The translations under genes and the position numbers were made by a program. Of a stretch of 64,000 bases of DNA, positions 14,545-64,000 are shown in pieces. Origin of the DNA: Candidatus Levyibacteriota bacterium (lineage in GTDB: Bacteria > Patescibacteriota > Microgenomatia > Levybacterales > UBA12049); contig JBDRBE010000003.1 in NCBI GenBank assembly GCA_043823085.1, forward strand, positions 19,822 through 83,821, in the 5' to 3' direction. The notes below the pieces were generated by a model that was not told where the DNA came from, did not search any database, and was given only the letters and a program-made list of their open reading frames with translations. Positions within the stretch are counted from its first letter, which is position 1, and each line of letters starts with the position of its first letter.

Positions 14545-14548
14545 AACT

Positions 14549-14599
14549 AGCGTATAGCGTATAGCGTATAGCGTATAGCGTATAGCGTATAGCGTATAG
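14549..14599. repeat. tandem heptamer (GCGTATA)x7 immediately after the nrdJ stop
   Basis: Seen directly: tagcgtatagcgtatagcgtatagcgtatagcgtatagcgtatag. This unit is the reverse complement of the CTATACGC family found elsewhere in the window. Confidence 0.9.
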
Positions 14600-14644
14600 T
14601 TGTAGTTGTAATTAAAAATTAATTCAGTTAAAATGTTTGCGTGG

Positions 14645-15375: not shown

Positions 15376-15594
15376 CCGTTCGCCTTTTCAATTCTATTCG
15401 AATACGGCTCACGGAGCGCTTTAAGGCGGGTAAGGTTAAAAAAATTTTATTGAAAGTAAAAATTGGGTGAAATCGGTGTGATTCCGATGCTGTGCCGCAA
15501 CTGTTAAAGCCAGATCCCCATTATCCCGCCAAACGGGATAGATAAGTCTTCCGAGTAGAAGCAATATTTCTCCTCGGAAACGAGGAGTTTTTTT
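15376..15594 (+). promoter_or_regulatory. second cobalamin riboswitch, upstream of an unknown 387-aa protein
   Basis: GGGTGAAATCGGTGTGATTCCGATGCTGTGCCGCAACTGTTAAAGCCAGATCCCC is a very good match to the B12 element core (GGTGAAAxCC...GCcGCAACTGTaa...AGCCAGGATaCC). The terminator hairpin ctcctcggaaacgaggagttttttt ends 2 nt before the ATG. Confidence 0.65.
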
Positions 15595-16818: not shown

Positions 16819-17304
16819 ATGGACGATTCGCAAAACTCAAAACTCAAAACTCAAAACTCAAATCAACAGGGTGGATTAGTAAATCAGACGGCGAACCAAA
16901 GTTTAGTATCAAATCCTTCAACCGTTACAGAGCCTGTTTCTCCTGTTAGTGTTCCTCAAAAAGAAATTGTGGAGCCGGTTTTAAATCAGCCAATAGCATC
17001 AGAAATTCAGGAGGAATGGGTAAAGCCGTCCCAAGCAGAGCCGGAGATTCAGCCAGAAGTAGAAGAAGCAGGTGTCGAAAAAGTTTCGGAGCTACCAAGA
17101 ATTACAGAAGAGCATAAACAAGTCGGCATAGAGCATGCCAAAGAGTCAACGCCCGTTCAAACAAAACCCTCGGGAACAATTCAATTACCAATGACCGAAA
17201 AAGAGGCGGATTCACAGATAAAATCAACAAAAAATACAGACTCGCCGCATTGGCTGGCAGTTTTAATTAAAAAAATATTTAAACGTTTAAAAGGGACAAA
17301 CTAA
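16819..17304 (+). CDS. hypothetical low-complexity (Q/N/S/P/E-rich) protein
   Basis: ORF starting MDDSQNSKLKTQNS... contains an in-frame (CAAAACT)n repeat (16831-16866) and is followed 1 nt later by the next gene. Confidence 0.4.
   Translation: MDDSQNSKLKTQNSNQQGGLVNQTANQSLVSNPSTVTEPVSPVSVPQKEIVEPVLNQPIASEIQEEWVKPSQAEPEIQPEVEEAGVEKVSELPRITEEHKQVGIEHAKESTPVQTKPSGTIQLPMTEKEADSQIKSTKNTDSPHWLAVLIKKIFKRLKGTN
16831..16866. repeat. tandem heptamer (CAAAACT)x~5 inside a coding region
   Basis: caaaactcaaaactcaaaactcaaaactcaaatc. Confidence 0.85.
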
Positions 17305-20968: not shown

Positions 20969-20984
20969 TTGAGCGTAGATATTT

Positions 20985-21056
20985 GCGTCCGTAGCTCAGT
21001 GGTAGAGCGCTACTCTTATAAAGTAGATGTCCTTGGTTCGAATCCAAGCGGACGCA
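20985..21056 (+). tRNA. tRNA-Ile, anticodon UAU
   Basis: Cloverleaf folded by hand: acceptor GCGTCCG/CGGACGC, D-arm GCTC..GAGC, anticodon stem CTACT/AGTAG with loop CTTATAA, and T-arm CTTGG-TTCGAAT-CCAAG. Confidence 0.7.
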
Positions 21057-21131
21057 CCCATTCGTCGCTTCGCTCCTCAGGGCAAGCTTGACTTTACAAA
21101 GGCCTTAATCTTTCGCTAAGATAGACGAAGC

Positions 21132-22943
21132 ATGAAAAAGATTTCCACGGGACCCGCATTCGGTGATTTTATTGGTTTGGAAAAATCCTCGCCAAAAAGG
21201 CATTACGGCGGCGAGGGCGACAGGACACAAATGCGGGATTTTTTACTGCCGCTTTTATTAATTATTTTGCTTGGCATTCTTATTTTCAGGCTTGCCGCTT
21301 TGCAAATTTTCCAGGGAAGTTATTATCGAAACCTGGCTGATAATAACAGAATCAGGACAACTACGATTCACGCTCCGCGGGGCATTATTTTTGACCGGAA
21401 CAACACGCCTTTGGTTTTTAATGTGCCCGGTTTTCGCGAAATTATTAATGGAAAAACTATTCTTCTCTCCCAAAAGCAGGCGATACAAGTAATTGCAGAA
21501 GGCAAAAAAGATCTAGAGGTTGATTCTCTTCGGGAATATTCTTATAAAGACGCTTTTTCTCATGTTTTGGGCTATCTTGGCCAAATTTCCCAAGGTGAAC
21601 TCAAAAAAGAAGAATTTAAAGACTATGCCGGCGGAGATTTAATAGGAAAAGACGGGATTGAACAGCAATATGAAAGTTTGCTTAAAGGTACAGACGGGAA
21701 GCAATTGTTTGAGGTGGATGCTTTAGGTAAAACAATAAGGACTTTGGGGGTTGAGGATCCAATTCCAGGTCTTGACATTAAATTAACTTTGGATGCCAAA
21801 CTGCAAATTGCAGGGTTTAAAGCAATGGAAAATGTTAAAAAAGGCGCATTAATTGTTTCAACGCCAAAAGGAGAAATCCTGGCTCTTATTTCAAAACCGA
21901 GCTTTGACCCAAACCTTTTTACCAAAGGCGAGTATTATTCTTCTGCTTCAGATTCTGCAAAGCAGAATTTGTCTGACGTTCTTCTTGGGCAAGAGAATCC
22001 TCTTTTAAACAGGGCAATTTCCGGAGTTTACCCTCCCGGATCAACTTTTAAAATAATTACGGCGGCAGCGGCTCTAGAAGATAAAATTATTGACGAGAAT
22101 TTTACGGTTGAGGACATAGGAGTTTTGCAAGTTGGAGCTTTTTCTTTTGGCAACTGGTATTTTCTGCAATACGGAAAAACAGAAGGAATTCTTAATGTAG
22201 TTTCGGCTTTAAGGCGGTCAAACGATATTTTCTTTTATAAGCTAGCCGAAAAAATTGGCCTTGAAAAATTATCGGAAATGGCAAAAAATTTTGGCCTTGG
22301 GCAAGCCTTGGGGATTGATTTAAGCGGCGAGGCAGAAGGTCTTGTGCCATCAGATTCCTGGAAACAAAAAGCAATTGGCGAGTCATGGTACTTGGGCGAC
22401 ACTTATCATTATGGTATTGGACAAGGATATTTGTTGACAACGCCTTTGCAGGTTAATACTTGGACCCAAGCGATCGCAAACGTGGGCTCGCTTTACGAGC
22501 CACATTTGCTTCAAAATCAAAAATTCTCGCGGAGCGAGACAAAATTCAAAATTCAAAGTTCAAAGTTTTTGAGTCAAAAAACAGTTGACTTAATTCGGCA
22601 GGGGATGGTGGAGAGTTGCAGCCCGGGTGGGGTGGCATGGCCGCTCTTTGAATTTAGAATTAAGAATCAAGAATTAAGAATTGATGGGAAGAATTTTTTG
22701 GAAGTGCCAACTTCATCAACTTCGGGACAAATGAAAGATTATCGGCAAATTTCAATTGCCTGTAAAACAGGAACAGCCCAACATGGAGGATTAGAAACTA
22801 TGCCTCACGCCTGGATAACGCTTTTTGCCCCGGCTTATGATCCGCAGATTGTCGTGACAGTTTTATCAGAAGAATCAGGGGAGGGTTCAAATGTTGCCGC
22901 CCCAATCGCCAAAAAAGTTTTGGAAGAGTGGTTTACTAGATAA
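21132..22943 (+). CDS. class B penicillin-binding protein (PBP2/FtsI-like peptidoglycan D,D-transpeptidase)
   Basis: N-terminal TM segment, PBP dimerisation region, and transpeptidase motifs (STFK, SxN region, KTGTAQ). It carries in-frame tandem-repeat insertions at 22515-22575 and 22655-22700. Confidence 0.85.
   Translation: MKKISTGPAFGDFIGLEKSSPKRHYGGEGDRTQMRDFLLPLLLIILLGILIFRLAALQIFQGSYYRNLADNNRIRTTTIHAPRGIIFDRNNTPLVFNVPGFREIINGKTILLSQKQAIQVIAEGKKDLEVDSLREYSYKDAFSHVLGYLGQISQGELKKEEFKDYAGGDLIGKDGIEQQYESLLKGTDGKQLFEVDALGKTIRTLGVEDPIPGLDIKLTLDAKLQIAGFKAMENVKKGALIVSTPKGEILALISKPSFDPNLFTKGEYYSSASDSAKQNLSDVLLGQENPLLNRAISGVYPPGSTFKIITAAAALEDKIIDENFTVEDIGVLQVGAFSFGNWYFLQYGKTEGILNVVSALRRSNDIFFYKLAEKIGLEKLSEMAKNFGLGQALGIDLSGEAEGLVPSDSWKQKAIGESWYLGDTYHYGIGQGYLLTTPLQVNTWTQAIANVGSLYEPHLLQNQKFSRSETKFKIQSSKFLSQKTVDLIRQGMVESCSPGGVAWPLFEFRIKNQELRIDGKNFLEVPTSSTSGQMKDYRQISIACKTGTAQHGGLETMPHAWITLFAPAYDPQIVVTVLSEESGEGSNVAAPIAKKVLEEWFTR
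22515..22575. repeat. AT-rich tandem repeats (AAATTCAAA / AGTTCAAAG) in-frame in PBP2
   Basis: gacaaaattcaaaattcaaagttcaaagtttttgagtcaaaaaa, encoding ETKFKIQSSKFLSQK. Confidence 0.8.
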
Positions 22944-25158: not shown

Positions 25159-25399
25159 GTCAAGCAAAAGTATATCAACTGGCGTTAAAGAAATCAATAA
25201 AGTGTGTTATAATATGGGCACGCGCGGGGTAGTGTACAGTGCACGTGAGGCTCATAATCTCACAGGCTAGGCGCAACTCCTAGCCCCGCAACACTTTGAC
25301 CCATACTCGTTCAGCGCAAACAAATTTGCTGGGCGAGTTTTTAATAATACAGAAGTGAATCCTAATAGGGTATAATGCAAGAAAAGTTAAGAAGGTTTA

Positions 25400-26752
25400 T
25401 TGATGAACAATCAATTCAAAAATAAAAAAATTGCCATTGTCGGGCTTGGAATAGAGGGTTTATCAAGCGCAAAGTTTTTTATTGAAAAGCGAGCAGAAGT
25501 TACAATTCTGGACAAAAAAGAAAAAACCGAATTAAACCTAGACACTCCGTTTGTTTTTGGTAAAAATTATCTGGATAATCTTGACTGTTTCGATGTCATT
25601 GTTAGAAGTCCGGGTGTTAAAGTTGATCTTCCAAATCTTCAAAAAGCAAAAGAAAAAGGAACGGTTATCACTTCTCAAATAAAACTTTTTTTTGATCTTT
25701 GTCCCTGCAAAATCATCGGCGTTACCGGAACAAAAGGAAAAGGAACGACCGCGTCGTTAATTTACGAAATGTTTAAAAAACAAACCAGAAATGCGTATTT
25801 GGGTGGTAATATAGGACTGCCTCCATTGGATTTTTTGGACAAATTAAATTCTCACTCAATTGTAGTTTTGGAACTCTCAAGTTTCCAACTCCAAGACCTT
25901 AAAAAGAGCCCTCATATTGCCGTAATTCTTATGACTTTAAGTGAACATCTTGATTATCATAAAGATGTTGAAGAATATGTCAGCGCAAAAAGAAATATTG
26001 TTAAATTTCAAAAGACTTCTGACTTTGCGATTTTAAATATTGATTATCCGGCAAGCCGCGAATCGGATATCCATACTCAGGGAAAAGTATTTTATATTAG
26101 TCGGGAAGGGGAGGTTGGTGAAGGATGTTTTGTGAAAAAAGGGGAAATAAAATTAAAAATTAAAAATGAGGAATTAAAAATTATTGATACTAAAGAAATT
26201 TTATTACCCGGGGAGCATAATTTTGAAAATGTTTGCGCGGCGGTTATGGCGGTTGCACTTTGTAATGTCTCGAAAGAGAATATCATTAAAGTCCTTAAAA
26301 CCTTTAAGGGCTTGGAGCATCGTTTGGAGCTTGTTGGAGAGGTTGGCGGCGTTAAATATTACGACGATTCGTTTTCGACCACTCCCGAAACTGCCATTGC
26401 CGCAATACTGGCTTTTAAAAATCCGGAGATTTTAATTTTGGGCGGGTCAAGTAAAAATTCAGATTTTAGCGAGTTAGGAAAAGTTATTAGTAATGCAAAA
26501 AATATCAAGGCGATTATTGGAATCGGTCTTGAATGGAAAAGAATTAAGTCAACTATACGCCATACGCTATACGCCATACGCTATATTGAAGGATTAAAGA
26601 ATATGCATTCAATTATTCAAAAAGCTTCAGAAATAGCGGAGGTGGGGGATATTGTTCTTCTGTCGCCGGCATGTGCCAGTTTTGATATGTTTAAGAACTA
26701 CAAGGACAGGGGAAGGCAGTTTAGAGAAGAAGTGGAGAACCTCAAGAAATAA
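25400..26752 (+). CDS. murD: UDP-N-acetylmuramoylalanine--D-glutamate ligase
   Basis: Rossmann N-terminus KIAIVGLGIEG and the Mur ligase P-loop IGVTGTKGKGTTASLIYEM. There is an in-frame CTATACGC-family repeat at 26548-26590. Confidence 0.9.
   Translation: MMNNQFKNKKIAIVGLGIEGLSSAKFFIEKRAEVTILDKKEKTELNLDTPFVFGKNYLDNLDCFDVIVRSPGVKVDLPNLQKAKEKGTVITSQIKLFFDLCPCKIIGVTGTKGKGTTASLIYEMFKKQTRNAYLGGNIGLPPLDFLDKLNSHSIVVLELSSFQLQDLKKSPHIAVILMTLSEHLDYHKDVEEYVSAKRNIVKFQKTSDFAILNIDYPASRESDIHTQGKVFYISREGEVGEGCFVKKGEIKLKIKNEELKIIDTKEILLPGEHNFENVCAAVMAVALCNVSKENIIKVLKTFKGLEHRLELVGEVGGVKYYDDSFSTTPETAIAAILAFKNPEILILGGSSKNSDFSELGKVISNAKNIKAIIGIGLEWKRIKSTIRHTLYAIRYIEGLKNMHSIIQKASEIAEVGDIVLLSPACASFDMFKNYKDRGRQFREEVENLKK
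26548..26590. repeat. CTATACGC/CCATACGC repeat inserted in-frame in murD
   Basis: aagtcaactatacgccatacgctatacgccatacgctatattg, encoding STIRHTLYAIRYI. Confidence 0.75.
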
Positions 26753-36744: not shown

Positions 36745-37701
36745 ATGAAACGTTTTGTTCTCATTGATGGCCATGCGATACTTCATCGGGCTTTTCATGC
36801 ATTGCCTCCGCTGACTTCTGCAAAGGGAGAAACGGTAAATGCGGTCTACGGATTTTTTGCCATGCTTCTTAAAATTTTAGAAGACGTAAAGCCGGAATAT
36901 TTAGCTATTTGTTTTGACAGGCCAAAACCAACTTTTCGTCAAGAACTTTACGTTGGTTATCAGGCCCATCGGCCAAAAATGGACAGCGATTTAGTTCCTC
37001 AAATTGTCCTTCTTCATAAAGTTTTGGAAAGGATAAAAATTCCAATTTTTGAGGTGGATGGATATGAGGCAGACGATGTGATCGGCACTTTGGCCGATCG
37101 AATTCAAAAATCAAAAATCAAAAATCAAAAATTGCAAACGATAATTGTTTCAGGAGATAGAGACATGTTGCAACTTGTAAATTCTCATGTTCTGGTGCTT
37201 GCGCCAATTACAGGCATTACAAAAATGATTTTATTTGACCAAGAAAAAGTGGAGGAAAAATACGGACTTAAACCTTCTCAAATTATTGATTACAAGGCGT
37301 TGATAGGAGACCCTTCAGATAATTATCCGGGAGTTTTGGGGGTTGGACCAAAAACCGCGGCAGAACTTCTTTTAAAATATGAAACACTTGAGAATTTATA
37401 TCAAAATTTAGATTCAGTAGAAAATAAAAAACTGGTGGAAAAGCTGGCCAAAGAAGCGGAAGCCGCAGGAATGGCCAAAAAATTAGCTACCATTATCACT
37501 GACGCGCCGATAACGTTGAGTATTGAAAAATGTTTAGTTTCAAAAGTTGACTTAGAAGAAACAAAAAAGGCCTTTGAAGAGCTGGGGTTTAAGAGTTTGT
37601 TAAAAAGACTAGGACAGAATTCTAGTGATTCAGTGGCTAAGGAAGAACAGAAGCCTAAGGAAACACAAAATAAGGACAATGGTCAGTTAGGACTTTTATG
37701 A
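36745..37701 (+). CDS. stand-alone 5'-3' exonuclease / flap endonuclease (Pol I N-terminal-domain family)
   Basis: MKRFVLIDGHAILHRAF ... GYEADDVIGTLA ... H3TH motif GDPSDNYPGVLGVGPKTA. No polymerase domain follows. There is an in-frame (TCAAAAA)x3 at 37105-37132. Confidence 0.85.
   Translation: MKRFVLIDGHAILHRAFHALPPLTSAKGETVNAVYGFFAMLLKILEDVKPEYLAICFDRPKPTFRQELYVGYQAHRPKMDSDLVPQIVLLHKVLERIKIPIFEVDGYEADDVIGTLADRIQKSKIKNQKLQTIIVSGDRDMLQLVNSHVLVLAPITGITKMILFDQEKVEEKYGLKPSQIIDYKALIGDPSDNYPGVLGVGPKTAAELLLKYETLENLYQNLDSVENKKLVEKLAKEAEAAGMAKKLATIITDAPITLSIEKCLVSKVDLEETKKAFEELGFKSLLKRLGQNSSDSVAKEEQKPKETQNKDNGQLGLL
37105..37132. repeat. tandem heptamer (TCAAAAA) in-frame in the exonuclease gene
   Basis: caaaaatcaaaaatcaaaaatcaaaaatt, encoding KSKIKNQK. 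Confidence 0.85.
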
Positions 37702-38713: not shown

Positions 38714-39376
38714 ATGAATTTAAGAGAAAAAGCTATGCATATGGTTTTGGCTGGTGCTATTGTTGGCGCATTGGGAGTGGGGTGTGCGCCGCCCGTGAGA
38801 GAAGGCACGGATGCTAGTCCGTCAAAAACAAAAACAGAGTGTCTTACGGTTACCCCATCAGAAAGATACTCTTGCCTCTATAAACTTCCAGATTTAAACT
38901 TTCCTGTGTGGGATATAGGTTCAGATGGAGCTTATTACGGTTGTCTTGTTAAAAACGGAGAAAAATCATCCATCAGCGCTAAAATTAATGACGATACATT
39001 AATCATAAGACTTGCGCGGTCTTTCACTGATTTTGCACCAGATTTTCCGGAAGATAAAAATTTAGCTTACATTTTTGATCCTAAAGATATGCGTGCTCGG
39101 ACTCTTCCGTTCAATGAAATAAATAAGATAGTTGATAATGACATTTCAAGGTTTTTGCAAGCCAGAAGAAGCAGTCCAATAATTGCTGTAAAAGACGTTT
39201 GGCAAGACAGCGGTTTTGTTTATTTGGGTTTTGATTATCAAAATATGCAGAATCGCGATAGATACTGGACATTAATGATGCGTAATAATATGCTTGAGGG
39301 GAATAACTTTCGAGGTGTTGGAAAGTTGATTTTGCAAGCGATGCGTATTAGACGTGCAAGTTTTGATAAAGCATGA
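38714..39376 (+). CDS. hypothetical lipoprotein
   Basis: Signal peptide with lipobox-like ...GALGVGCAPP. Confidence 0.45.
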   Translation: MNLREKAMHMVLAGAIVGALGVGCAPPVREGTDASPSKTKTECLTVTPSERYSCLYKLPDLNFPVWDIGSDGAYYGCLVKNGEKSSISAKINDDTLIIRLARSFTDFAPDFPEDKNLAYIFDPKDMRARTLPFNEINKIVDNDISRFLQARRSSPIIAVKDVWQDSGFVYLGFDYQNMQNRDRYWTLMMRNNMLEGNNFRGVGKLILQAMRIRRASFDKA

Positions 39377-40641
39377 AAGTTGCGTTGGTGCATGATTATA
39401 TTAAAGAATATGGAGGCGCCGAAAGAGTGCTTGAGGCGTTGCATGAGATTTGGCCGGAGGCGCCCATTTTTACTTCGGTTTATCTGCCTGAATTTTTAGG
39501 ACCGCACAGGGAAAGGTTTAACGGATGGAAAATTAAAACTTCAATTCTTCAAAGTTTACCATTGAAAGCAAAATTAATAAGCCCTTTTCGAATTATCGCG
39601 CCGCTAATCTTTCGGTCATTTGATTTCAGCGATTATGATGTAGTAATTGTTTCTGCAACCGGAGCATATACACCGAACATGATACAACTCAAAACCACAA
39701 CTCAAAGCTCAAAAATAACTGACCATACGCCATGCGCCATACGCCATGCGCCAGTTCATGTTTGCTATTGTCATACGCCGCCAAGATATCTTTATGGATT
39801 TGCTACGGCAAGGGATTGGAAAAAGAATATTATTTTTAGGGTTTTGGGGGAAATTGCCAATGCATTTTTGCGGCAAATTGATTTTAAATCGGCGCAAAAC
39901 GTTGATTATTTTATCGCCAACTCAAAAAACGTGGCGGGAAGAATTAAAAAGTTCTATAAAAGAGATTCGACAGTTATTTATCCCCCCGTAGTTGGCGCTG
40001 AGGTCGGACATACAAATTTTTTTGTTCCGCAGTTGTCTCACGAAGAATCTCAAGGTGTTCATCAGCGCATTGGCGCTCGACAAGATGCGAACAGAAAAAA
40101 TTTGATATCCTCCCCGCGCCAATACTTTTTAGCCGGAGGAAGATTGGCAAGGCCAAAACACATTGATTTGATTGTTCAAGCCTGCGCTGAACTAAACCTT
40201 CCTCTGAAAATTTTTGGGAAGGGATTCGCGGGATACGATCAACAATTAAAAAATCAAAAATCAAAAATCAAAAATATAACTCAAAAGTCAAAAGTTGAAT
40301 TTTTGGGAGAAGTGAGCGACCAGGAGAAGTTGGAGTTGATGAAAAATGCCAAGGCTTACATTTTTGCCTCGGAAGATGAGGATTTTGGTATCACACCGGT
40401 TGAAGCAATGAGTGTTGGTACGCCGGTTGTTGCTTACCGTTCGGGAGGCGTTGTTGAATCGGTTGTTGATGGAAAAACAGGAATATTTTTTGATAAACTA
40501 TCAATAGAGTCTTTGGCGGAGGCAATAAGGCGCTTAAGCAGTTTAGGGGACTTAAGTGAAAATTGCCGCAATCAGGCCAAAAAATTTAGTAAAGAAAGAT
40601 TTAAAAAAGAAATCGTAGAATTTATTAAATCAAAAATTTAA
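39373..40641 (+). CDS. family GT4 glycosyltransferase carrying three in-frame repeat insertions
   Basis: N-terminus VALVHDYIKEYGGAERV and C-terminal EDFGITPVEAMSVGTPVVAYRSGGVVESV (E-x7-E region). Inserts lie at 39685-39755, 39998-40121 and 40248-40276. Confidence 0.8.
   Translation: MKVALVHDYIKEYGGAERVLEALHEIWPEAPIFTSVYLPEFLGPHRERFNGWKIKTSILQSLPLKAKLISPFRIIAPLIFRSFDFSDYDVVIVSATGAYTPNMIQLKTTTQSSKITDHTPCAIRHAPVHVCYCHTPPRYLYGFATARDWKKNIIFRVLGEIANAFLRQIDFKSAQNVDYFIANSKNVAGRIKKFYKRDSTVIYPPVVGAEVGHTNFFVPQLSHEESQGVHQRIGARQDANRKNLISSPRQYFLAGGRLARPKHIDLIVQACAELNLPLKIFGKGFAGYDQQLKNQKSKIKNITQKSKVEFLGEVSDQEKLELMKNAKAYIFASEDEDFGITPVEAMSVGTPVVAYRSGGVVESVVDGKTGIFFDKLSIESLAEAIRRLSSLGDLSENCRNQAKKFSKERFKKEIVEFIKSKI
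39685..39755. repeat. AT-rich plus CCATACGC/CCATGCGC repeat insertion in-frame in the GT4 gene
   Basis: caactcaaaaccacaactcaaagctcaaaaataactgaccatacgccatgcgccatacgccatgcgcc. Confidence 0.7.
39998..40121. repeat. ~125-bp RPE-like element with terminal inverted repeats (family B copy 1), inserted in-frame inside the GT4 CDS
   Basis: aggtcggacatacaaatttttttgttccgcag...gatgcgaacagaaaaaatttgatatcctccccgcgcca. It is about 85% identical to 50285-50409 (intergenic). The termini CAAATTTTTTTGTTCCGCAG and CTGCGAACAGAAAAAATTTG are reverse complements. Confidence 0.8.
40248..40276. repeat. (TCAAAAA)x4 tandem repeat in-frame in the GT4 gene
   Basis: aaaaatcaaaaatcaaaaatcaaaaatat. Confidence 0.85.
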
Positions 40642-42310: not shown

Positions 42311-42454
42311 GAATCTTTGAAGTGGGAAGTGGGATTTTCTTGAATTTGATGTCTTGATGATTCGATTCCTAGATATCAAGGTTTCGAGATTTCAATTCGT
42401 TAGCTGACGAATCAAGATCAAAAGCATCAAAGATATCTCACTTCAAAAATTCCA
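42311..42454. repeat. MITE-like ~140-bp element with terminal inverted repeats, family A copy 1
   Basis: It starts ctttgaagtgggaagtggga and ends gatatctcacttcaaaaattccaatg. Related copies are at 52605-52740 and 59108-59186. It ends exactly at the recF start codon. Confidence 0.7.
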
Positions 42455-43537
42455 ATGTATTTAAAGCATTTATTTCTTCAAAACTTCAGAAACTATTCAA
42501 AATCAGATTTTAACTTTAGTCAAGATACAACTCTAGTCGTTGGCCCTAATACCTCTGGAAAAACAAATTTAATTGAGGCGATTTATTTACTATCAACCGG
42601 AAAAAGTTTTCGCTCGGAAAAAGATTATCAAATGATTAGTTTTGATAAAGATTTGGCGAGGGTGAAAGGAAAAATAGACGATATAGAACTTGAGATTGTT
42701 TTAACAAACGAAGGTCTTAAAAAATATTTAGTCAACGGAGTCAGTAAAAGAAAAGCGGATTTTGCCTCTAATCTGCCTTTGGTTCTTTTTAACCCGGAAG
42801 ATTTAGAAATTATTATTGATTCGCCTTCTTTGCGGCGGAATTTTTTAGACGAAGTTTTAGAACAGGAAGACAGAGATTATCGGTTTGCGATTATTGCTTA
42901 CACCAAGGCTTTACGCCAGCGAAACGCGCTTTTGGAATTGGCAAGAGAAACAGGCCGGCAGGGAAAAGAAAAGCAATTTGAATATTGGGATGATCTTTGT
43001 ATTAAAAACGGCGAGATTGTAACTGCAAAAAGAGAGGAGTTCATTACTTTTTTAAATAATGCAGATAAAGAAATTTTTGATTTCCAAGTGGTTTACGATA
43101 AAAGTATTATTTCTCCCGAGCGGCTTTTGCAATACAAAAATGCGGAAGTTGGGGCAGGTGTAACTTTGGTTGGTCCCCATAGAGATGATTTTTCGGTTCA
43201 CATGTTCAATAACCAGAGGCAAACGACACACGATGTTAAGTTTTTTGGTTCAAGAGGCCAGCAGAGATTAGCGATTTTACAATTAAAACTTTTACAGCTT
43301 GAATATTTGGAAAAGAGAATAGGGCAGCGGTCCACCTTCACTGAAGCTTCGGCGGACAGGCCAATTCTTCTTTTGGATGATATTTTTTCCGAGCTTGACA
43401 GCGAACATATTCAGCTTGTTTTAGAGATGGTTGATAAACAGCAAACCATTATGACCGCAACACACAAAGAATTCTTTGATAAAAAGTTTCTAAGAGGGGT
43501 AAGTGTGATAGAATTAGGATTAAATGGAAAAGTTTGA
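42455..43537 (+). CDS. recF: DNA replication and repair protein RecF
   Basis: Walker A VGPNTSGKTNLIEAIYLLSTGKSFR, plus the signature and Walker B regions near the C-terminus (LLLDDIFSELD). Confidence 0.9.
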   Translation: MYLKHLFLQNFRNYSKSDFNFSQDTTLVVGPNTSGKTNLIEAIYLLSTGKSFRSEKDYQMISFDKDLARVKGKIDDIELEIVLTNEGLKKYLVNGVSKRKADFASNLPLVLFNPEDLEIIIDSPSLRRNFLDEVLEQEDRDYRFAIIAYTKALRQRNALLELARETGRQGKEKQFEYWDDLCIKNGEIVTAKREEFITFLNNADKEIFDFQVVYDKSIISPERLLQYKNAEVGAGVTLVGPHRDDFSVHMFNNQRQTTHDVKFFGSRGQQRLAILQLKLLQLEYLEKRIGQRSTFTEASADRPILLLDDIFSELDSEHIQLVLEMVDKQQTIMTATHKEFFDKKFLRGVSVIELGLNGKV

Positions 43538-44417
43538 CCAAAGCCAGTTAAAGAAACTTTATCGACCTCAAAAGAATTCTCATAAGGGGCAAAATGGGAA
43601 GTTGATGATTATCGGCGGGTCGCATCTTTTTCATGGTGCGTCTTTGTGGGCGCTAAAAGTTGCTTCAAGAATTGTAGACATGGTTTTTTATTCATCAACA
43701 GCGGAAAATAATCAACTCACGCAGGAATTAAAAAGCAAACTTTATGATTTTATGGCAATTTCAAGAGATAAAATTGACGATTATATTAAAGAGGCGGATG
43801 TTGTTCTTTTGGGCTCGGGATTGCCAAGGGAAGAGGGAAGAGAAGAGAGAGAAGAATCGACAAGAGAACTCACGCAAAGATTATTAAGCTCGTATCCCGA
43901 TAAAAAATGGGTGATTGATGCAGGTTCTTTAACCGAGATGGAGCCGGAATGGCTATTACCATTAAAGGGAAACGTGATAGTTACTCCACATAAAGGAGAG
44001 TTTGAAACTCTTTTTAAACTCAAAAGTCAAAAGTCAAATCTCAAAACCACAACTCAAAACTCAAAAATTACGGAAGAAATTGTTCAGCAAATGGCCGGAA
44101 AATATAACTGTGTGATTCTTTTAAAGGGCGCAACAGATATTATTTGTTCGCCCTTCGACTCCGCTCAGGGTGAAATTCGTTGCGTCCGAATTTCAGGTGG
44201 AAATGTAGGGATGACCAAAGGGGGAACAGGAGATGTTCTAGCAGGTTTAGTTGCGGCGCTTTCTTGCAAAAACGATTTGTTTTTAGCGGCATCGGCTGGT
44301 TCATTTATCAACAAAAAAGCCGGAGAAAGTCTTTATGAGAAGGTTGGACCTTATTTTAACGCTTCAGATTTGGCAGACGAAATTCCCGCAGTAATGAATC
44401 ATTTAATCAATAAATAA
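43524..44417 (+). CDS. YjeF C-terminal-domain carbohydrate-kinase-like protein (NAD(P)H-hydrate dehydratase family)
   Basis: GQNGKLMIIGGSHLFHGASLWA ... GGTGDVLAGLVAALS. It carries in-frame repeat insertions at 43810-43870 (GA-rich), 44020-44075 (AT-rich) and 44150-44200 (family D). Confidence 0.7.
   Translation: MEKFDQSQLKKLYRPQKNSHKGQNGKLMIIGGSHLFHGASLWALKVASRIVDMVFYSSTAENNQLTQELKSKLYDFMAISRDKIDDYIKEADVVLLGSGLPREEGREEREESTRELTQRLLSSYPDKKWVIDAGSLTEMEPEWLLPLKGNVIVTPHKGEFETLFKLKSQKSNLKTTTQNSKITEEIVQQMAGKYNCVILLKGATDIICSPFDSAQGEIRCVRISGGNVGMTKGGTGDVLAGLVAALSCKNDLFLAASAGSFINKKAGESLYEKVGPYFNASDLADEIPAVMNHLINK
44150..44200. repeat. family D element (ccttcgactccgctcaggg + hairpin gaaattcg...cgaatttc), in-frame in the YjeF-like gene
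   Basis: The core TTCGACTCCGCTCAGGG is shared with 59866-59925 (inside trxB) and related to family C (GCTCAGGGCAA). Confidence 0.65.
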
Positions 44418-46964: not shown

Positions 46965-48710
46965 ATGCTTTTTGCAGTACTCTCCAAATATTTTGAAAAA
47001 TTAGAATCTACTTCGTCGCGACTTGCTTTGATTGATATTCTCTCGGAGCTTTTTAAAGAATCAGAGAAAGACGAAATTGAAGAAATTGTTTATTTAACTC
47101 AAGGAAGGGTTGCTCCATTTTTTGAAGCGACGGAAATTGGCATGGCCGAAAAAACCGTTGCCGATTCAATTGCAAGAGCGTATGGATTATCGAAAGCAGA
47201 GGTTTTAAAGTCGTATCAAAAATTAGGAGATATGGGGAGCGTCGCTACGATCTTAAGTTCAAAAATCACCCGTTCGGCAAGCTCAGTGCAAAAATCAAAA
47301 ATATCTGTTTCCCAAGTTTTTGATGTTTTGACGCAAATTGCCAAGACCTCGGGAGAGGGAACGGTAGAAAAGAGACTTGTTCTTTTATCAGAGCTTCTTA
47401 AAAAACTTGATCCTGTTTCGGTTAAACATTTAGCGCGTATTCCTTTGGGAAATATGCGGCTTGGGATTGGTGACCCGACGATTTTGGACGCGCTTGCCAA
47501 AGCAAAGCTTGGCGATAAAAGCAAAAGAAAACTTTTAGAAGGGGCTTACAACAGAACTTCGGATCTTGGATTAATTGCCAAAACTCTTTGGAGCGACGGG
47601 CTTTCAAGCGTTGAAAAACTAAAAGTTGCGGTTGGAAAACCAATTCGGGCCGAGCTTGCCGAAAGATTGCCAAGTCCCGAAAAAGTAATTGAGAAAATGA
47701 AAACAGTCGACGTACAGTATAAATACGATGGTTTTCGCGTTCAAATTCACAAAAATAAAAACGAGGTTTCGATGTATTCAAGAAATCTTGAGAATATGAC
47801 TCATATGTTTCCCGAACTTATAAAAGGAGCGAAAGAACAGGTTAAACCCCAAACAGTTATTTTGGATTGCGAGGCGCTGGCTTACAATCCCCTTTCGGAA
47901 GAATTTTTGCCGTTTCAGGAAACAACCAAACGAAGAAGAAAACACGGTATTGAGGAGATGGCAAAAAAACTGCCTCTTAAAGCTTTTGTTTTTGACATCC
48001 TTTATAAGGATGGAAAGTCCTTGATTGACGAGCCGTTGACTAGTCGACTGAAAATTCTCAAAGAGACTATCAGGGATAATGGGGTTTTAATTGTCACCAA
48101 AAATCAAACTGTCTCCGATGCAAAAACTTTAACTTTACTTTTGGAAGACGCAATTTCCAAAGGTCTGGAGGGAGTGGTTGTTAAAAGATTGGACAGTAAA
48201 TATGAGGCGGGGGCAAGAAATTTTAATTGGGTAAAACTCAAAAGAAATTCCTCCGGCGAACTTAACGACACAATTGATTGTGTGATTTTGGGTTACATCA
48301 GCGGAAAAGGTAAAAGAACCGCTTTTGGAGCAGGGGCTTTGCTTGTTGGAATTTATGACGACAAAAAAGATGAGTTTGTAACTGTTTCCAAAATCGGAAC
48401 AGGACTTACAGATGAAGAATGGAAAGAAATAAAAATTCAAGGTGCAAAATTCAAAGTGCAAGATAAACCGCCGAGAGTAAATTCATTAATAACACCAAGT
48501 GTTTGGGTAGCGCCAAAAATTGTCATTGAAGTTTTGGCAGATGAAATAACTCGTAGTCCTGTTCATACCGCAGGGAAAAGCGCTGATGAACCCGGTTACG
48601 CTCTTCGATTTCCCCGTCTTGTTTCATTTCGAGGAAAAGATAAGCGGGCAGAAGACGCCACGACGGTTAAAGAATTAATTCAGATGTACAAACAACAAGG
48701 GAAAAAATAA
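46965..48710 (+). CDS. ATP-dependent DNA ligase (archaeal/eukaryotic-type)
   Basis: Adenylation motif I KYDGFRVQIH, motifs III-V and the OB domain (EGVVVKRLDSKYEAG...). A family C repeat lies in-frame at 47258-47306. Confidence 0.85.
   Translation: MLFAVLSKYFEKLESTSSRLALIDILSELFKESEKDEIEEIVYLTQGRVAPFFEATEIGMAEKTVADSIARAYGLSKAEVLKSYQKLGDMGSVATILSSKITRSASSVQKSKISVSQVFDVLTQIAKTSGEGTVEKRLVLLSELLKKLDPVSVKHLARIPLGNMRLGIGDPTILDALAKAKLGDKSKRKLLEGAYNRTSDLGLIAKTLWSDGLSSVEKLKVAVGKPIRAELAERLPSPEKVIEKMKTVDVQYKYDGFRVQIHKNKNEVSMYSRNLENMTHMFPELIKGAKEQVKPQTVILDCEALAYNPLSEEFLPFQETTKRRRKHGIEEMAKKLPLKAFVFDILYKDGKSLIDEPLTSRLKILKETIRDNGVLIVTKNQTVSDAKTLTLLLEDAISKGLEGVVVKRLDSKYEAGARNFNWVKLKRNSSGELNDTIDCVILGYISGKGKRTAFGAGALLVGIYDDKKDEFVTVSKIGTGLTDEEWKEIKIQGAKFKVQDKPPRVNSLITPSVWVAPKIVIEVLADEITRSPVHTAGKSADEPGYALRFPRLVSFRGKDKRAEDATTVKELIQMYKQQGKK
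47258..47306. repeat. family C copy 3 (ttcaaaaatcacccgttcggcaagctcagtgcaaaaatcaaaaatatc), in-frame in the ligase gene
   Basis: The same core as the pgk copies but read in a third frame (TRSASSVQKS). Confidence 0.7.
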
Positions 48711-48875: not shown

Positions 48876-50267
48876 ATGCAACTAGTGGCAGATTTACATG
48901 TACATAGTAAATACTCACGCGCGGTATCACCGGACATGGTTTTGCCAATCATGGCAAAATGGGCAGTTAAAAAAGGAATTGATATTTTGGCAACTGCCGA
49001 CTGGACACATCCTCTTTGGTTTAGGGAAATAAAAGCTAACCTAGAAGAATCCAGTATTGGACTCTTCAAGCTCAAATCTTCCTCCTACTCTAAAGCTTCG
49101 GAGGACAAGCAAAACAAAACTCATTTTATTCTCTCCACTGAAATTTCGAGCATTTACTCGCAGGGTGGGCAAGTGCGGAGAGTTCATAATTTAATTTTAT
49201 CGCCGGGCTTTGAAACTTGCGAAAAAATCAATCAGGAATTGGTTAAACGCGGGTGTAATCTTTCCTCCGACGGACGGCCGATTGTTGGAATTTCTTCAAA
49301 AAATCTTTTGGAAATGGTTTTATCAATTGACAAAAACGCCTTATTTATTCCTTGCCATGTTTGGACGCCGTGGTTTTCTTTGTATGGTTCAAAATCAGGC
49401 TTTGATTCTATAGAAGAATGTTTTGGTGAGTATGTAAATAAAATTTATGCCGTTGAGACAGGACTTTCAAGCGACCCCCAAATGAACTGGCGGATAAAAG
49501 AATTGGAAAACCGTTCAATTGTTTCCTCGTCTGATTCCCATTCGCCGGCAAAGATGGGGAGGGAAGCGACCATATTCACAGTTCAAAATTCAAAATTCAA
49601 AAATCAAAATGACAGTTCAAAATTCAAAATTACATATGATGATTTAGTAGCTGCTATAAAAAGAGATCCCGAAGGTAATTTAAAGATTGGTTATACTATT
49701 GAGTTCTATCCGGAGGAGGGGAAATACCATTATACGGGGCATAGAAATTGTAAAGTTGTACAGAGTCCGGAGGAAACAAATAAGAATGGAGAGATTTGTC
49801 CGGTTTGCAAAAAACCCCTGACAGTGGGAGTGATGCACCGTGTTGAACAACTTGCTCAACAACAATCAATAAACAACTATCGACAATCAACAGATAAATT
49901 TGGAGTTACTTGGGTTGAAGATTCCAGAGGTATTCATCCGCCGTTTGTAAAATTGGTGCCTTTAAATGAAATAATTGCCGAGAGTTTAGCATCGACCGTG
50001 TCTAGCGTCAAAGTAAAAAGCGTTTTTGATCAAATGTGTGGTGAATTCGGTTCGGAAATAAAAATTCTTTTGACAACTCCAATTCAAGATTTGGAAAAAG
50101 CCCAAGGGCCAAAAATTGCCGAGGGAGTTGCCAAAGTCAGGAAGAGTGATATTGTGATTGAACCCGGATTTGATGGAGAATATGGGAAGGTAAAGATATG
50201 GGGAGAAAAAAAGTCAGCAGAGAATAGAAATGGGGAGAAAGAAGAGGCGCAGTTGGGATTATTTTAA
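48876..50267 (+). CDS. PHP-domain nuclease, endonuclease Q-like (TIGR00375 family)
   Basis: N-terminal DLHVHSKYSRAVS PHP motif, further His/Asp metal ligands (PCHVWTPWFS, SSDSHSP), an internal CxxC zinc finger (ICPVCKKPLTVGVMHRVEQLA) and C-terminal PGFDGEYGKVKI. The architecture matches archaeal EndoQ. An in-frame AT-rich tandem repeat lies at 49580-49632. Confidence 0.55.
   Translation: MQLVADLHVHSKYSRAVSPDMVLPIMAKWAVKKGIDILATADWTHPLWFREIKANLEESSIGLFKLKSSSYSKASEDKQNKTHFILSTEISSIYSQGGQVRRVHNLILSPGFETCEKINQELVKRGCNLSSDGRPIVGISSKNLLEMVLSIDKNALFIPCHVWTPWFSLYGSKSGFDSIEECFGEYVNKIYAVETGLSSDPQMNWRIKELENRSIVSSSDSHSPAKMGREATIFTVQNSKFKNQNDSSKFKITYDDLVAAIKRDPEGNLKIGYTIEFYPEEGKYHYTGHRNCKVVQSPEETNKNGEICPVCKKPLTVGVMHRVEQLAQQQSINNYRQSTDKFGVTWVEDSRGIHPPFVKLVPLNEIIAESLASTVSSVKVKSVFDQMCGEFGSEIKILLTTPIQDLEKAQGPKIAEGVAKVRKSDIVIEPGFDGEYGKVKIWGEKKSAENRNGEKEEAQLGLF
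49580..49632. repeat. AT-rich tandem repeat (TTCAAAA) in-frame in the EndoQ-like gene
   Basis: cagttcaaaattcaaaattcaaaaatcaaaatgacagttcaaaattcaaaatt. Confidence 0.85.
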
Positions 50268-50284
50268 AAATTGTTTCTTTGGCG

Positions 50285-50409
50285 CTTAGGTCGGACATGC
50301 AAATTTTTTTGTTCCGCAGTTTCTCTCGCGATGGGTCTTAATTTGCTCATCAACGCAGCGTCGCTCGCAAAGATGCGAACAGAAAAAATTTGATATCCTC
50401 CCCGCGCCA
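50285..50409. repeat. ~125-bp RPE-like element, family B copy 2 (intergenic)
   Basis: taggtcggacatgcaaatttttttgttccgcag...gatgcgaacagaaaaaatttgatatcctccccgcgcca. It is homologous to 39998-40121. Confidence 0.8.
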
Positions 50410-50423
50410 CAATAAAAAATTTT

Positions 50424-51053
50424 ATGATGTTTAAGAATAGAGAACAGGTTGGGGGGCTTTTGGCTCAAAAATTAAAATCTTTTGAAGGTAAAAAAGATGT
50501 TTTAGTTTTGGGGATTCCAAGGGGCGGAGTAGTAGTTGCAAAAATTATTGCCCAAAGATTAAAACTCATTCTTGATATAATTGCCGTTAAAAAAATCGGT
50601 GCGCCCAGCAATCCGGAATTGGCAATTGGCGCTTTGGGCCCCAAAAGTATGGTTTATTTGGAAGAAAATTTAATATCTCATTTGGGAGTTAGCATATCAG
50701 AAATCAAAAGTTTGAAAGCGCAAAAAGAAAAAGAACGAAAGGAACTTGAAGAAAGATTAAGAGGCGAAAAATATGCCATTGATGTTAAAGGGAAAACAAT
50801 TATTTTAGTTGATGACGGAGTGGCAACCGGCGCAACAGTAAAATGCGCAAGCATTTTTCTTAAAAAAGAAAAAGCGAAAAAGATAATTTTGGCCGTTCCG
50901 GTAATTTCAGAAGAAACTTTTGATGAGATTAAAACCTATTTTGATCAAGTGATTGCTTTATCTATCGAAGAAAATTTTTACGCCGTAGGCCAATTTTATT
51001 CTGACTTTCCGCAGGTTGGCGACAACGAAGTTAGAAATATTTTGAAAAAATGA
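50424..51053 (+). CDS. phosphoribosyltransferase family protein
   Basis: PRPP-binding motif IILVDDGVATGATV. Confidence 0.75.
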   Translation: MMFKNREQVGGLLAQKLKSFEGKKDVLVLGIPRGGVVVAKIIAQRLKLILDIIAVKKIGAPSNPELAIGALGPKSMVYLEENLISHLGVSISEIKSLKAQKEKERKELEERLRGEKYAIDVKGKTIILVDDGVATGATVKCASIFLKKEKAKKIILAVPVISEETFDEIKTYFDQVIALSIEENFYAVGQFYSDFPQVGDNEVRNILKK

Positions 51054-51984: not shown

Positions 51985-52602
51985 ATGAAATTAATAGTAG
52001 GGCTTGGAAATCCGGGGGAGAAGTATGAGAAAACCCGCCATAATTTGGGTTTTATGGTTTTGGAAAAATTCTTGCAGGATTTTGAATCGGCGAAGATGAC
52101 AGTTTGGAAGAACGAACCAAAATTCAAATGTGAAACAGCACTTATTGAATGGCAGCCAAAAATTGGTCAATTGGAAAAAGTGGTTTTGGCAAAACCAAAA
52201 ACCTATATGAATAATTCCGGACTTGCCATTAAACTTCTCACTTCTTACTTCTCACTTTTCACTTCCGATGTTTGGGTTATTCATGATGATATTGATTTAC
52301 CGCTCGGTTCATTAAAGATTAGATTTGGCGGCTCATCGGCCGGACACAAAGGAGTTCAATCAATTATTGACAATCTTGGAACAGATAAGTTTTGGCGTTT
52401 TAGAATGGGGATAGGAGAACAATATCAAAAATCAAATATCAAAGATCAAAAGATTAGAAATGTCGATGAATATGTTTTGAATACATTCAAAGGACAGGAG
52501 AGGGGAAAAGTTAAGGATTTAATAAAAAAAGGTTCAAAAGCGATTCAAACAGGACTTGAAGACAGTTTAGAAGCGGCAATGAATAGGTTTAACACTAAGT
52601 AA
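51985..52602 (+). CDS. pth: peptidyl-tRNA hydrolase
   Basis: MKLIVGLGNPGEKYEKTRHNLGF and HDDIDLPLGSLKIRFGGSSAGHKG (Pth signatures). It has a short in-frame TCACTTC repeat insertion. Confidence 0.9.
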   Translation: MKLIVGLGNPGEKYEKTRHNLGFMVLEKFLQDFESAKMTVWKNEPKFKCETALIEWQPKIGQLEKVVLAKPKTYMNNSGLAIKLLTSYFSLFTSDVWVIHDDIDLPLGSLKIRFGGSSAGHKGVQSIIDNLGTDKFWRFRMGIGEQYQKSNIKDQKIRNVDEYVLNTFKGQERGKVKDLIKKGSKAIQTGLEDSLEAAMNRFNTK

Positions 52603-52604
52603 AC

Positions 52605-52740
52605 GGAATTCTTGAAGTGAGAAGTAAGATATCTTTGAATTTGATTTCTTGATATCTTGATATTTTGAATTCTAGATATCAAGACGTCAAAGATTCAAGT
52701 TCAAGAATATCAGAGGTATCTCACATCAAAAAGTTCTAAT
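52605..52740. repeat. MITE-like element, family A copy 2
   Basis: It starts gaattcttgaagtgagaagtaagatatc and ends gaggtatctcacatcaaaaagttctaat. The termini TTGAAGTGAGA...GATATC and GATATCTCAC..TCAA are reverse complements. Confidence 0.7.
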
Positions 52741-59107: not shown

Positions 59108-59186
59108 TTTAGAATTCTTGACGTCAAGACCTCAAAAATTCAAGATCAAGAATATCAAGAGTGTCCAACTTCAAAAATTCCAAATA
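59108..59186. repeat. degenerate family A MITE-like element, copy 3
   Basis: gaattcttgacgtcaaga...caacttcaaaaattccaaat shares both termini with the copies at 42311 and 52605. Confidence 0.55.
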
Positions 59187-59226: not shown

Positions 59227-59553
59227 ATGGCAGAAGTAATTATTACCGATCAAAATTTCGAATCAGAAGTTATTAAATCTGACATGCCGGTTCTTGTGGA
59301 TTTTTGGGCGCCGTGGTGCGGGCCATGCCGGATTGTCGGTCCGATTATCGAAGAATTGGCAAAAGAATATGAGGGAAAAGTTAAAATCGGAAAATTAAAT
59401 GTTGACGAAAATTCCGATACTGCGACAAAATATGCGGTGATGAGTATTCCGACTCTTCTTATCTTCAAAAAAGGAAGTCCTTTTAAAACCATGGTCGGCG
59501 CTCTGGCAAAAGAAAATATTAAAAAGGAAATCGATTCAGTAATTAGCGTATAG
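59227..59553 (+). CDS. trxA: thioredoxin
   Basis: Active site WAPWCGPCR. Confidence 0.92.
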
Positions 59554-59620
59554 GGTATAGGGGATAGCGTATAGTTTCCGTTTTAACTATATGCTATACG
59601 CCATTTGCTATACGCTGTTT
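59551..59620. repeat. long hairpin built from GCGTATAG/CTATACGC units between trxA and trxB
   Basis: gcgtatagggtataggggatagcgtatag...ctatatgctatacgccatttgctatacgc. The arms are reverse complements. It may act as a terminator or attenuator. Confidence 0.65.

Positions 59621-62014: not shown

Positions 62015-64000
<1,986 letters not shown>

Follow-up and report, generated by a model that had tools for sequence, protein, structure and literature searches.

An imperfect-palindrome repeat family carried in frame by housekeeping genes of Patescibacteria, with similarities to the Rickettsia palindromic elements

A sequence that stands in the middle of a glycosyltransferase gene and recurs, with both its ends, in an intergenic spacer raises the question of whether it is a part of that protein or a genetic element of its own. 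This is the situation in a stretch of 64,000 nucleotides from a Candidatus Levyibacteriota bacterium (GenBank assembly GCA_043823085.1, contig JBDRBE010000003.1, positions 19,822 to 83,821), hereafter called the window. An earlier inspection without database searches (the sequence-only reading) had placed two copies at 39998-40121 and 50285-50409, about 85% identical and with ends that were mutual reverse complements. Both copies were found again with the bounds shifted by a few bases (Table 1), and they are imperfect palindromes identical at 113/132 positions (85.6%). Their ends are inverted as proposed, with a complementarity that is only imperfect (28/45 by gapped alignment). In a profile search, no copies beyond these two were found in the window.

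The similarity between the copies is concentrated at the ends. The left 43 nt of copy 1 (39992-40034) differ from those of copy 2 at 2/43 positions (95% identity), and the right 38 nt are identical in both, a string matching twice in the window with 0 matches expected from 100 shuffles. When end blocks (2 x 43 columns) were compared with the central 46 columns, 80/86 (93%) and 33/46 (72%) of the positions were identical, respectively (Fisher p = 0.0015). The RNA fold, suggested as a check when the repeat was noticed, was a single long hairpin for each copy, with z values of -4.5 and -3.3 for the + strand, -5.5 and -4.3 for the - strand; 0/200 shuffles folded as well. Copy 1 is free of stops through the host open reading frame (ORF), where it is read as ...PPVVGAEVGHTNFFVPQLSHEESQGVHQRIGARQDANRKNLISSPRQYFLAGGR...; the claim that it lies in frame stands, and its contribution is 44 codons and not the 41 or so residues first estimated. 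Copy 2 is longer by 1 nt, has stops in the corresponding frame and fills 131 of the 156 nt of spacer between two genes, which are the EndoQ-like and phosphoribosyltransferase genes that had been named (Table 1).

The right-arm pattern ACAGNNAAAATTTNNNNNNCTCCCCGCG was scanned against one-genome-per-species GTDB contigs and JGI metagenomes. It matched 13 loci in the GTDB species contigs, 12 of them real and one (Calothrix) due to chance, and 28 loci in the JGI metagenomes. After removal of duplicates there were 35 distinct copies; since retrieval used a single arm, the counts are lower bounds and the conservation of the right arm is inflated. A profile search of the fetched loci turned up copies missed by the strict pattern, namely a second one each in L028 and L026, besides others in L020, L035 and L040 that are partial or variant, so the pattern undercounts. 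The source assemblies are independent (NCBI, JGI, ENA, Logan) and the titles of the carriers are Levyibacteriota, Microgenomates, "Patescibacteria group", one Saccharimonadales and two metagenome-assembled genomes (MAGs) labelled Gammaproteobacteria. The contigs of the latter (L005 and L009, "uncultured Gammaproteobacteria") have about 38-39% G+C and may be mis-binned or mislabelled.

The family consensus is GCGCTGAGGTCG, 6-7 variable nt, AAAATTTTCGTGTTCAC, a variable loop of 35-50 nt, CTCACAGCGAAAATTTTG, 5-6 variable nt and CTCCCCGCGC, or in compact form RGCGCTGAGGTCG-N6-7-AAAATTTTCGTGTTCAC...loop...CTCACAGCGAAAATTTTG-N5-CTCCCCGCGCY, with core lengths of 110-127 nt. Terminal inverted repeats are present, as the ends RGCGC...GCGCY plus long imperfect arms; each arm has a self-complementary GAAAATTTTC box, and the stem has conserved asymmetric bulges. 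The base at -1 is a purine in 83% of the copies and the base at +1 a pyrimidine in 77%, forming a complementary pair in 22/35. No direct repeats were found across the 35 flank pairs; lacking an empty site to fix the boundaries, this is compatible with a duplication of 1-2 nt. Rfam gave no match at the gathering score and only chance-level matches at E up to 10, Pfam gave no match to the element peptide, and neither viral contigs (searched with both arm patterns) nor phage and plasmid collections gave any, so there is no sign of a phage or plasmid vector. [quoted passage not shown] The two window sequences are copies of an undescribed imperfect-palindrome repeat family, present mainly in Levybacteria and other Microgenomates.

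Two further observations concern intergenic sites. A variant repeat has the inner stem of the window type (TTGTTCCGCAG...ATGCGAACAG) and other outer ends (TTGCCTCGGAAC...GTTCCTCAGCAA), at L020 5108-5186, L035 2130-2208 and L040 2090-2172; it occupies the same intergenic spacer of different assemblies, L020 and L035 being identical and L040 different. Some intergenic copies have been called as small ORFs (P0121, P0122 and P0124; L045 10001-10159 and 13982-14104, L049 3789-3947), which either overlap both the upstream gene's stop and the RNase J start, or come after FtsK; in L049 the RNase J call begins within the element.

About 60% of the copies (22/35) are spanned by long ORFs, and 21 of these 22 share one orientation and frame, in which the peptide xAEVASENFRVH...ANAHSENFxSSPR is encoded. 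The family is carried in frame by 12 host protein families: GT4 glycosyltransferases of two subfamilies (8 loci), DnaX (L028, L036, L038, L040, with a decayed copy in L035), PrsA (L016, L024 and the second copy of L028), a FolC-like Mur ligase (L008, P0126), TopA (L009), methionine aminopeptidase or Map (L012), a 5'-3' exonuclease (L015), a RluD-like pseudouridine synthase (L039), LeuRS (L042 / P0132), a protein of 341 aa that matches DHH weakly (L020), DprA (P0131, from a separate protein search) and a DUF2298 membrane protein (L037, in reverse orientation). The proposal of a palindromic repeat lying in frame within a gene, in the manner of the Rickettsia palindromic elements (RPEs), thus holds, and it extends to these families and to intergenic spacers across Patescibacteria.

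The GT4 host permits a closer view of the site. Pfam assigns Glyco_transf_4 to residues 13-206 and Glycos_transf_1 to residues 238-404 of this protein, which is a 100% match to a protein of a Candidatus Levyibacteriota MAG. Twenty-two aligned GT4 homologues show three hypervariable insertion points, and the element is located at the second one, after VIYPP, a conserved motif, and ahead of YFLAGGR. In the AlphaFold2 model (mean pLDDT 70.7) the element peptide runs between strand 199-201, the last of the N-terminal half, and strand 251-255, the first of the C-terminal half; secondary structure is absent from residues 211-247, where pLDDT is below 50, and the peptide is modelled as disordered (pLDDT about 32-35). 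The model thus places it in the linker that connects the two Rossmann-like halves of the GT-B fold, in keeping with the loop placement that had been anticipated. The linker measures 13-57 aa across 112 homologues. A recognisable element occupies this site in 7 of the best 120 GT4 homologues and also in a second GT4 subfamily; the orthologues L001 and L002 have similar linker ends, and their DNA shows the same arms at the same site. Other homologues have possible remnants, for example GAEVAPPGRGSPRSY or a short GAEV...SPRSY. Contrary to expectation, the insertion is thus not specific to this lineage. The sequence-only reading had set such orthologous segments against the idea of an inserted element; they do exist, and its core still stands because the element is also found in unrelated genes and its relatedness does not follow that of the host genes.

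Taking into account the hypervariable linker and the short remnants, one could suppose that there is no element at all, only an old and fast-evolving GT4 linker, of which the intergenic copy would be a one-off local duplication or an assembly artefact. This is contradicted by the same sequence in 12 unrelated protein families and many spacers from independent assemblies, and its probability is practically negligible. At the first hypervariable site (alignment A2, columns about 112-150), the GT4 homologues P0005, P0038, P0031 and P0039 have peptides that resemble other palindromic repeat families in translation (CHPELVSGS..MPKQVRHD; VIARRKERATRQSH..IASPLRGLAMTK), so in-frame insertion of repeats may be general in these genomes.

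Two other hosts show how the protein looks with and without the segment. Among the best 120 LeuRS homologues the peptide is present in the query only, the 119 others being without it; in 15 aligned LeuRS sequences ...DRE-RVKK-WLPVNMYIGGAEH stands in place of a 47-residue block, and identity to the closest relative is 63%. In PrsA, 49 residues stand where its two domains meet, against 7 in the PRPP synthetase of B. subtilis (PDB 1dkr). At the protein level the element is an insertion in LeuRS, PrsA and GT4. In a hybrid protein of 270 aa (P0129) the junction coincides exactly with the element: the N-terminal part is RluD-like and resembles L039, and what follows is a GT4 C-terminal half of subfamily 2, of the kind seen in L018 and L023. 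Either two copies have really recombined, or the repeat has led to a chimeric metagenome assembly.

A strong hairpin within genes might also indicate an intervening sequence, whether intron-like, intein-like or bypassed, whose removal follows transcription or translation and leaves the mature protein without it, and bacteria of the candidate phyla radiation are known for insertions in their rRNA genes. Such an excision would make it needless to keep an open frame and a length of 3n, which 21 of the 22 genic copies do and the intergenic copies do not. Moreover, the intein nucleophile and HN motif are absent, the junction residues are variable, and Rfam gave no group I/II intron or ribozyme match. 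We consider this explanation highly implausible. Readings as a terminator, attC site, CRISPR repeat, intein or intron were rejected, as there was no T run, R'/R'' site, array, splice motif or covariance-model match.

The frame raises the question of what is being conserved. The genic core lengths are 110, 113, 116, 119 or 125 nt, all 2 mod 3, and those of intergenic copies include 111, 112, 114, 115, 118 and 126. The canonical frame (+2) is used at 10/11 independent host sites; the arms are stop-free in 4/6 frames, and among the intergenic copies frame +0 is open in 6/14 and the canonical frame in 5/14. Considering this bias, together with the conserved motifs AEVxxENF ... SENFxSSPR and the enrichment of hosts in core information-processing enzymes, the unit of selection might be the peptide of roughly 40 residues, a portable module (an interaction or localisation tag) spread by recombination, the palindrome being secondary. 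Codon-position variability was measured in the left arm, which was not used in retrieval. The third positions were the least variable, with an entropy of 0.27 against 0.41 at position 1 and 0.59 at position 2, which is the opposite of what a selected peptide would leave. Intergenic copies have the same variability profile and keep the same arms despite stops or frameshifts. The ENF...ENF symmetry is a direct consequence of the self-complementary GAAAATTTTC box, and the peptide is modelled as disordered and has no Pfam family. The bias of frame is itself sufficiently explained by selection for a hydrophilic loop, because frame +0 would encode a hydrophobic stretch (ALRSLPKIFVFT...). A peptide module therefore seems very improbable.

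Pairing is conserved along with the arms. The consensus that RNAalifold returned for the family alignment was minimal, and a stem of 24 pairs was specified by hand. Standard pairs made up 88% of its cells, and 8 pairs had double-sided changes, across 36 cells; 0/500 shuffles reached the observed values, and in controls with the stem slid the paired share fell to 29-60%. Judging by these substitution patterns, conservation acts on nucleotides and pairing and not on the peptide.

The element is also polar. With GC skew taken as a proxy for the replication strand, skew was positive on the + strand of the element at 35/35 loci. In L037, whose host gene runs antisense to the element, the skew of the gene is still +0.13 in the orientation of the element, as in the neighbouring gene, so the orientation there follows the replication-type skew and not the gene. 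The + strand of the window has a skew of +0.07 to +0.22 throughout and holds most of the genes, and about 15/16 intergenic copies are co-oriented with the adjacent gene. On the other side, RNA folding was better for the - strand in 34/35 copies (mean -39 vs -31 kcal/mol), and the non-Watson-Crick cells of the stem were 66 A.C, which are G.U on the - strand, vs 6 G.U on the + strand. This asymmetry is suggestive only, resting on perhaps 13 vs 5 independent site-type combinations. Its direction is opposite to the one that a C-to-T bias on the G-rich strand would produce, which points to selection, either favouring the hairpin of the - strand or disfavouring a strong one in the mRNA and in the lagging-strand template.

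These features would also be expected if the repeat were a nucleic-acid structure useful to the host, recruited or kept at many places, ORFs included. It could act on the mRNA (as a stability or RNase III site), on translation (as a pause) or from the antisense strand (as a signal), or be a DNA structure for replication or transcription with the palindromic GAAAATTTTC box. The nucleotide conservation common to genic and intergenic arms, the covarying stem with its asymmetric bulges, the excess of A.C cells with better folding of the - strand and the fixed orientation relative to neighbouring genes and GC skew are all in its favour, as are some intergenic copies at the same place in related genomes, e.g. 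upstream of rpsB in L025 and L026. It is difficult to reconcile with the lack of a common gene class or position, the copies being in the linkers of 12 proteins that are unrelated to each other, in spacers, both 5' and 3', and between cistrons. Their distribution among orthologues is patchy (7/120 GT4 and 1/120 LeuRS, among the best 120 of each), Rfam gives no match even at E = 10, a terminator-like T run is absent 3' of the element, and the A.C/G.U asymmetry comes from few independent events. We regard a host structure as unlikely.

The relatedness of the copies bears directly on movement. The element of L018 (GT4) is 92-93% identical to those of L044 (intergenic) and L020. The copies of L008 (FolC), L042 (LeuRS), L012 (Map) and L010 (GT4) form a group with 88-91% identity and a common loop encoding LGLKSKK. 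At the equivalent position of the two GT4 subfamilies, the flanks are 43-53% identical and the elements 76-84%. The window pair are mutual nearest relatives (86%), at most 62% identical to any other copy, and belong with L004 and L034 to the TTGTTCCGCAG...ATGCGAACAG arm subtype; the GT4 orthologues L001, L002 and L010 have another arm subtype at the same GT4 site. The relatedness of elements is thus incongruent with that of host genes, and within an orthologue group the elements diverge roughly as their flanks do. Taken together, this points to long vertical persistence at a site along with transfer, re-insertion or gene conversion between sites.

Taking all this into account, we consider it probable that the family is a non-autonomous palindromic element, mobile or recently mobile, an analogue of the RPEs tolerated as a disordered loop. 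The terms selfish and mobile, and mobility itself, are inferred from sequence comparison. The element would propagate as a single-stranded hairpin and insert into AT-rich DNA with its polarity to the replication fork fixed, the + strand always lying on the G-rich strand, which we regard as the leading one. Genic insertions would survive only where a linker or loop tolerates them and where they fall in the single phase without stops and with a hydrophilic product; there they would be translated as about 40 extra, probably disordered residues, and later indels would keep the length a multiple of three. The mobiliser would be a trans-acting enzyme; a Y1/HUH (IS200/RAYT-like) transposase is our guess, prompted by the bias in strand, by the absence of target duplication and by a single case of adjacency to tnpA. 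A single-strand mechanism of this type would best fit the hairpin, the absent target duplication and the replication-strand polarity.

Ordinary housekeeping genes stand beside the intergenic copies according to Pfam, the exception being an IS200/IS605 tnpA (154 aa; L027 488-952, L030 828-1292) located 64 nt upstream of an element copy. It scores 126 bits with NF033573 and 40 bits with REP_Tyr_transpos, whose cut-off is 80, and it is the only transposase near any copy, with no other Y1 gene in the 390 kb of loci. This insertion sequence (IS) has its own end hairpins, CCCTAGTGCTTGGCACTAGGG and CCCCAATGCTTGGCATTGGGG (L030 819-839 and 1302-1322), which differ from those of the element, and we do not take it as the mobiliser. 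The adjacency is only a hint, because the end hairpins are unrelated and sequences like the repetitive extragenic palindromes (REPs) are known IS targets (review literature).

Several observations weigh against a mobile element. No transposase or longer element with the same ends turned up in the window or in the fetched loci, which total about 390 kb, nor any near-identical pair of empty and filled sites, the nearest LeuRS relative being the 63% identical one. In GT4, DnaX, PrsA and FolC the element is at the same position in several species, with a divergence that roughly tracks the flanks; this looks like long vertical persistence and not frequent movement, and arms conserved in old genic copies might just as well reflect a host function. 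Copies are few: 2 in 64 kb, and in the JACOXU01 assembly at least 3. A profile search of 1.84 billion representative proteins, limited by 50% clustering and the short profile, gave 7 matches with 4 true carriers (P0121, P0126, P0129, P0131); with the peptide profile, a 5.8-billion-protein index gave 5 short ORFs only, its word index not surfacing long hosts. Finally, the - strand folds better, yet an IS608-type model would expose the + strand as lagging-strand template, so the two strand clues fit together poorly.

A stronger version, possible but doubtful in our opinion, is that of a still-active, replication-strand-specific element moving as a single-strand hairpin, for which linkers of essential genes are safe havens throughout Patescibacteria. 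Its arms would be kept, even in old in-frame copies, by selection or by repeated re-homing and gene conversion, and the same 40-residue segment would have been added repeatedly to DnaX, TopA, LeuRS, PrsA, Map and other core enzymes. If this were true, it would be the first RPE-like system outside Rickettsia, tractable through its signatures of strand, frame and covariation.

The finding matters because stable hairpins in coding sequence are rare, and the RPEs have been mechanistically unexplained for 25 years and described as exclusive to Rickettsia. A second family, in bacteria of the candidate phyla radiation, indicates that the phenomenon recurs in reduced, AT-rich genomes. It offers handles on the mechanism (a single frame and replication-strand orientation, covariation of the stem, bulges that are conserved and a GAAAATTTTC box per arm) and is a source of lineage-specific insertions in essential proteins of Patescibacteria. 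In practical terms, a repeat of ~120 nt in single-copy markers such as LeuRS, DnaX and TopA can cause chimeric metagenome assemblies, of which P0129 may be one, and can distort alignments for phylogeny.

Other repeats were observed in the window (Table 1). A-rich repeats with a 7-nt period (TCAAAAA, CTCAAAA or TTCAAAA; 3-6 units) lie in frame in at least 9 + strand ORFs and encode K/N/Q/S-rich stretches, e.g. QKSKIKNQK. Two of them are at the other two hypervariable sites of GT4, and one is in the 5'-3' exonuclease loop where L015 has the palindromic element. Since the 7-nt period lies inside coding sequence, it points to a repeat that would act at the DNA level rather than as an amino-acid repeat. 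A 45-nt repeat (TCAAAWATCACCCGTTCGGCAAGCTCAGKGCAAAWATCAAAAATA), 93% identical between two ORFs and read in different frames (YHPFGKLRANIKN and ITRSASSVQKSKI), is a second read-through repeat in genes of the window. Separate from the palindromic element, an intergenic repeat of about 100 nt (TTGATATCTTGATA...TCAAGA...ATCTCACWTCAAAAA) has three copies of 66-80% identity, each of which precedes a + strand gene. TAGCGTA heptamers form tandem arrays in both orientations.

Table 1. Coordinates of the element copies, their genes and other features of the window
Feature	Position	Strand	Remarks
Element copy 1	39992-40122	+	TTG-GCGC...GCGC-CAA; in the canonical frame of the family
Copy 1, family core (GCGC...GCGC)	39995-40119	+	125 nt; nhmmer
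Copy 1, in-frame codon block	39991-40122	+	44 codons; GT4 residues 207-250
Copy 1, left arm GCGCTGAGGTCGGACATACAAATTTTTTTGTTCCGCAG	39995-40032	+	pairs with right arm in predicted folds; aligns to family columns 1-39
Copy 1, variable central loop	40033-40083	+	encodes roughly LSHEESQGVHQRIGARQ
Copy 1, right arm GATGCGAACAGAAAAAATTTGATATCCTCCCCGCGC	40084-40119	+	same in copy 2; fits family pattern ACAGNNAAAATTTNNNNNNCTCCCCGCG
Element copy 2, intergenic	50279-50409	+	core 50282-50407, 126 nt; co-oriented with copy 1 and both flanking genes
Host gene of copy 1	39373-40641	+	GT4 (GT-B fold) glycosyltransferase, 422 aa; Pfam
Upstream neighbour of copy 2	48876-50267	+	Endonuclease Q homologue; PDB 5zb8 (E = 2e-44), 7k30 (E about 1e-44)
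Downstream neighbour of copy 2	50424-51053	+	phosphoribosyltransferase; Pfam Pribosyltran, 6e-22
7-nt-period repeats	39669-39728, 40244-40275, 37101-37146, 44017-44080, 49570-49636, 14952-15039, 16831-16865, 52422-52453, 5089-5120, 22540-22564		
45-nt repeat	4025-4069, 47259-47303		in ORF 3700-4674 and in 581-aa ORF 46965-48710 (DNA ligase by synteny with L002)
Intergenic repeat of about 100 nt	42346-42455, 52641-52740, 59108-59185		
TAGCGTA arrays	14548-14614, 26550-26585, 59544-59589, 62767-62800		one within ORF 25391-26749; one within Rfam 23S rRNA match (62020-64000)
AdoCbl-II riboswitch, borderline match	15452-15525		37.0 bits vs gathering score 36.5
tRNA-Ile	20984-21060		anticodon TAT

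Among known systems, the REP/REPIN repeats (mobilised by RAYT, a Y1 HUH enzyme) and the hairpin elements of the IS200/IS605 type share with the present family an imperfect hairpin of about 100 nt with two inverted halves and no target-site duplication. IS608 and ISDra2 transpose as single-stranded DNA in a strand-specific manner coupled to replication, and the orientation of our element is likewise tied to the replication strand (35/35 by the GC-skew proxy). One copy (L027/L030) adjoins an IS200/IS605 tnpA, which scores below the NCBIfam cut-off for REP transposases and whose IS has unrelated ends. The ends of the element are GCGC after a purine, without a GTAG/CGTC tag, GTAG being found just upstream in a few copies only. 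Moreover, REPs are extragenic, whereas 22/35 copies here are intragenic and the copy number is low.

Bacterial MITEs in frame in genes have been described for enterobacterial RU/ERIC (Delihas 2007, PMC2759123), for the Coxiella QMITE (PMC5896051) and for pneumococcal BOX/RUP. They are also small non-autonomous repeats with inverted ends, at times fused in frame with host ORFs or extending them. Those cases are mostly terminal extensions or in hypothetical genes and concern a minority of the copies, whereas our element consists mostly of internal in-frame insertions in essential enzymes, with no target duplication or parent IS seen. Among integron attC sites, which are imperfect inverted repeats of 57-141 bp acting as a folded single strand, extra-helical bases set the strand choice. 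This offers a mechanistic analogy for the conserved bulges of the element, which differs from attC in lacking R''/R' core sites (GTTRRRY), an integrase and a cassette organisation. In organelles, GC clusters occur in var1 of yeast mitochondria. Coding palindromes are found in the mitochondria of Nematomorpha (PMC6649704). These hairpins too are richer in G+C than the AT-rich reduced genomes that bear them, tolerated in coding sequence and maintained without decay; they are organellar, and the repeats of Nematomorpha are perfect and not a dispersed consensus family, whereas the element is a single conserved family across many bacterial genera.

Compared by described behaviour, the element can be regarded as an analogue of the RPEs (RPE-1 and relatives; Ogata et al. 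2000, 2002, as summarised in PMC10969869 and PMC6649704) and not as a member. The host phylum here is Patescibacteria, unrelated to Rickettsia, and there are 2-3 copies per genome stretch compared with 44 in R. conorii. RPEs are reported to become less palindromic with age (PMC6649704, after Claverie and Ogata 2003), whereas in our element the arms are the best-conserved part, the stem covaries and there is no decay. It also keeps one frame and one replication-strand orientation. To our knowledge, no equivalent report of frame and strand exists for RPEs. What both have in common is a hairpin-forming repeat of about 100-150 bp without a recognised transposase, which lies in spacers and in frame in many unrelated housekeeping genes, encodes a conserved peptide, is apparently compatible with the fold of the protein that receives it, and resides in a small, AT-rich and reduced genome.

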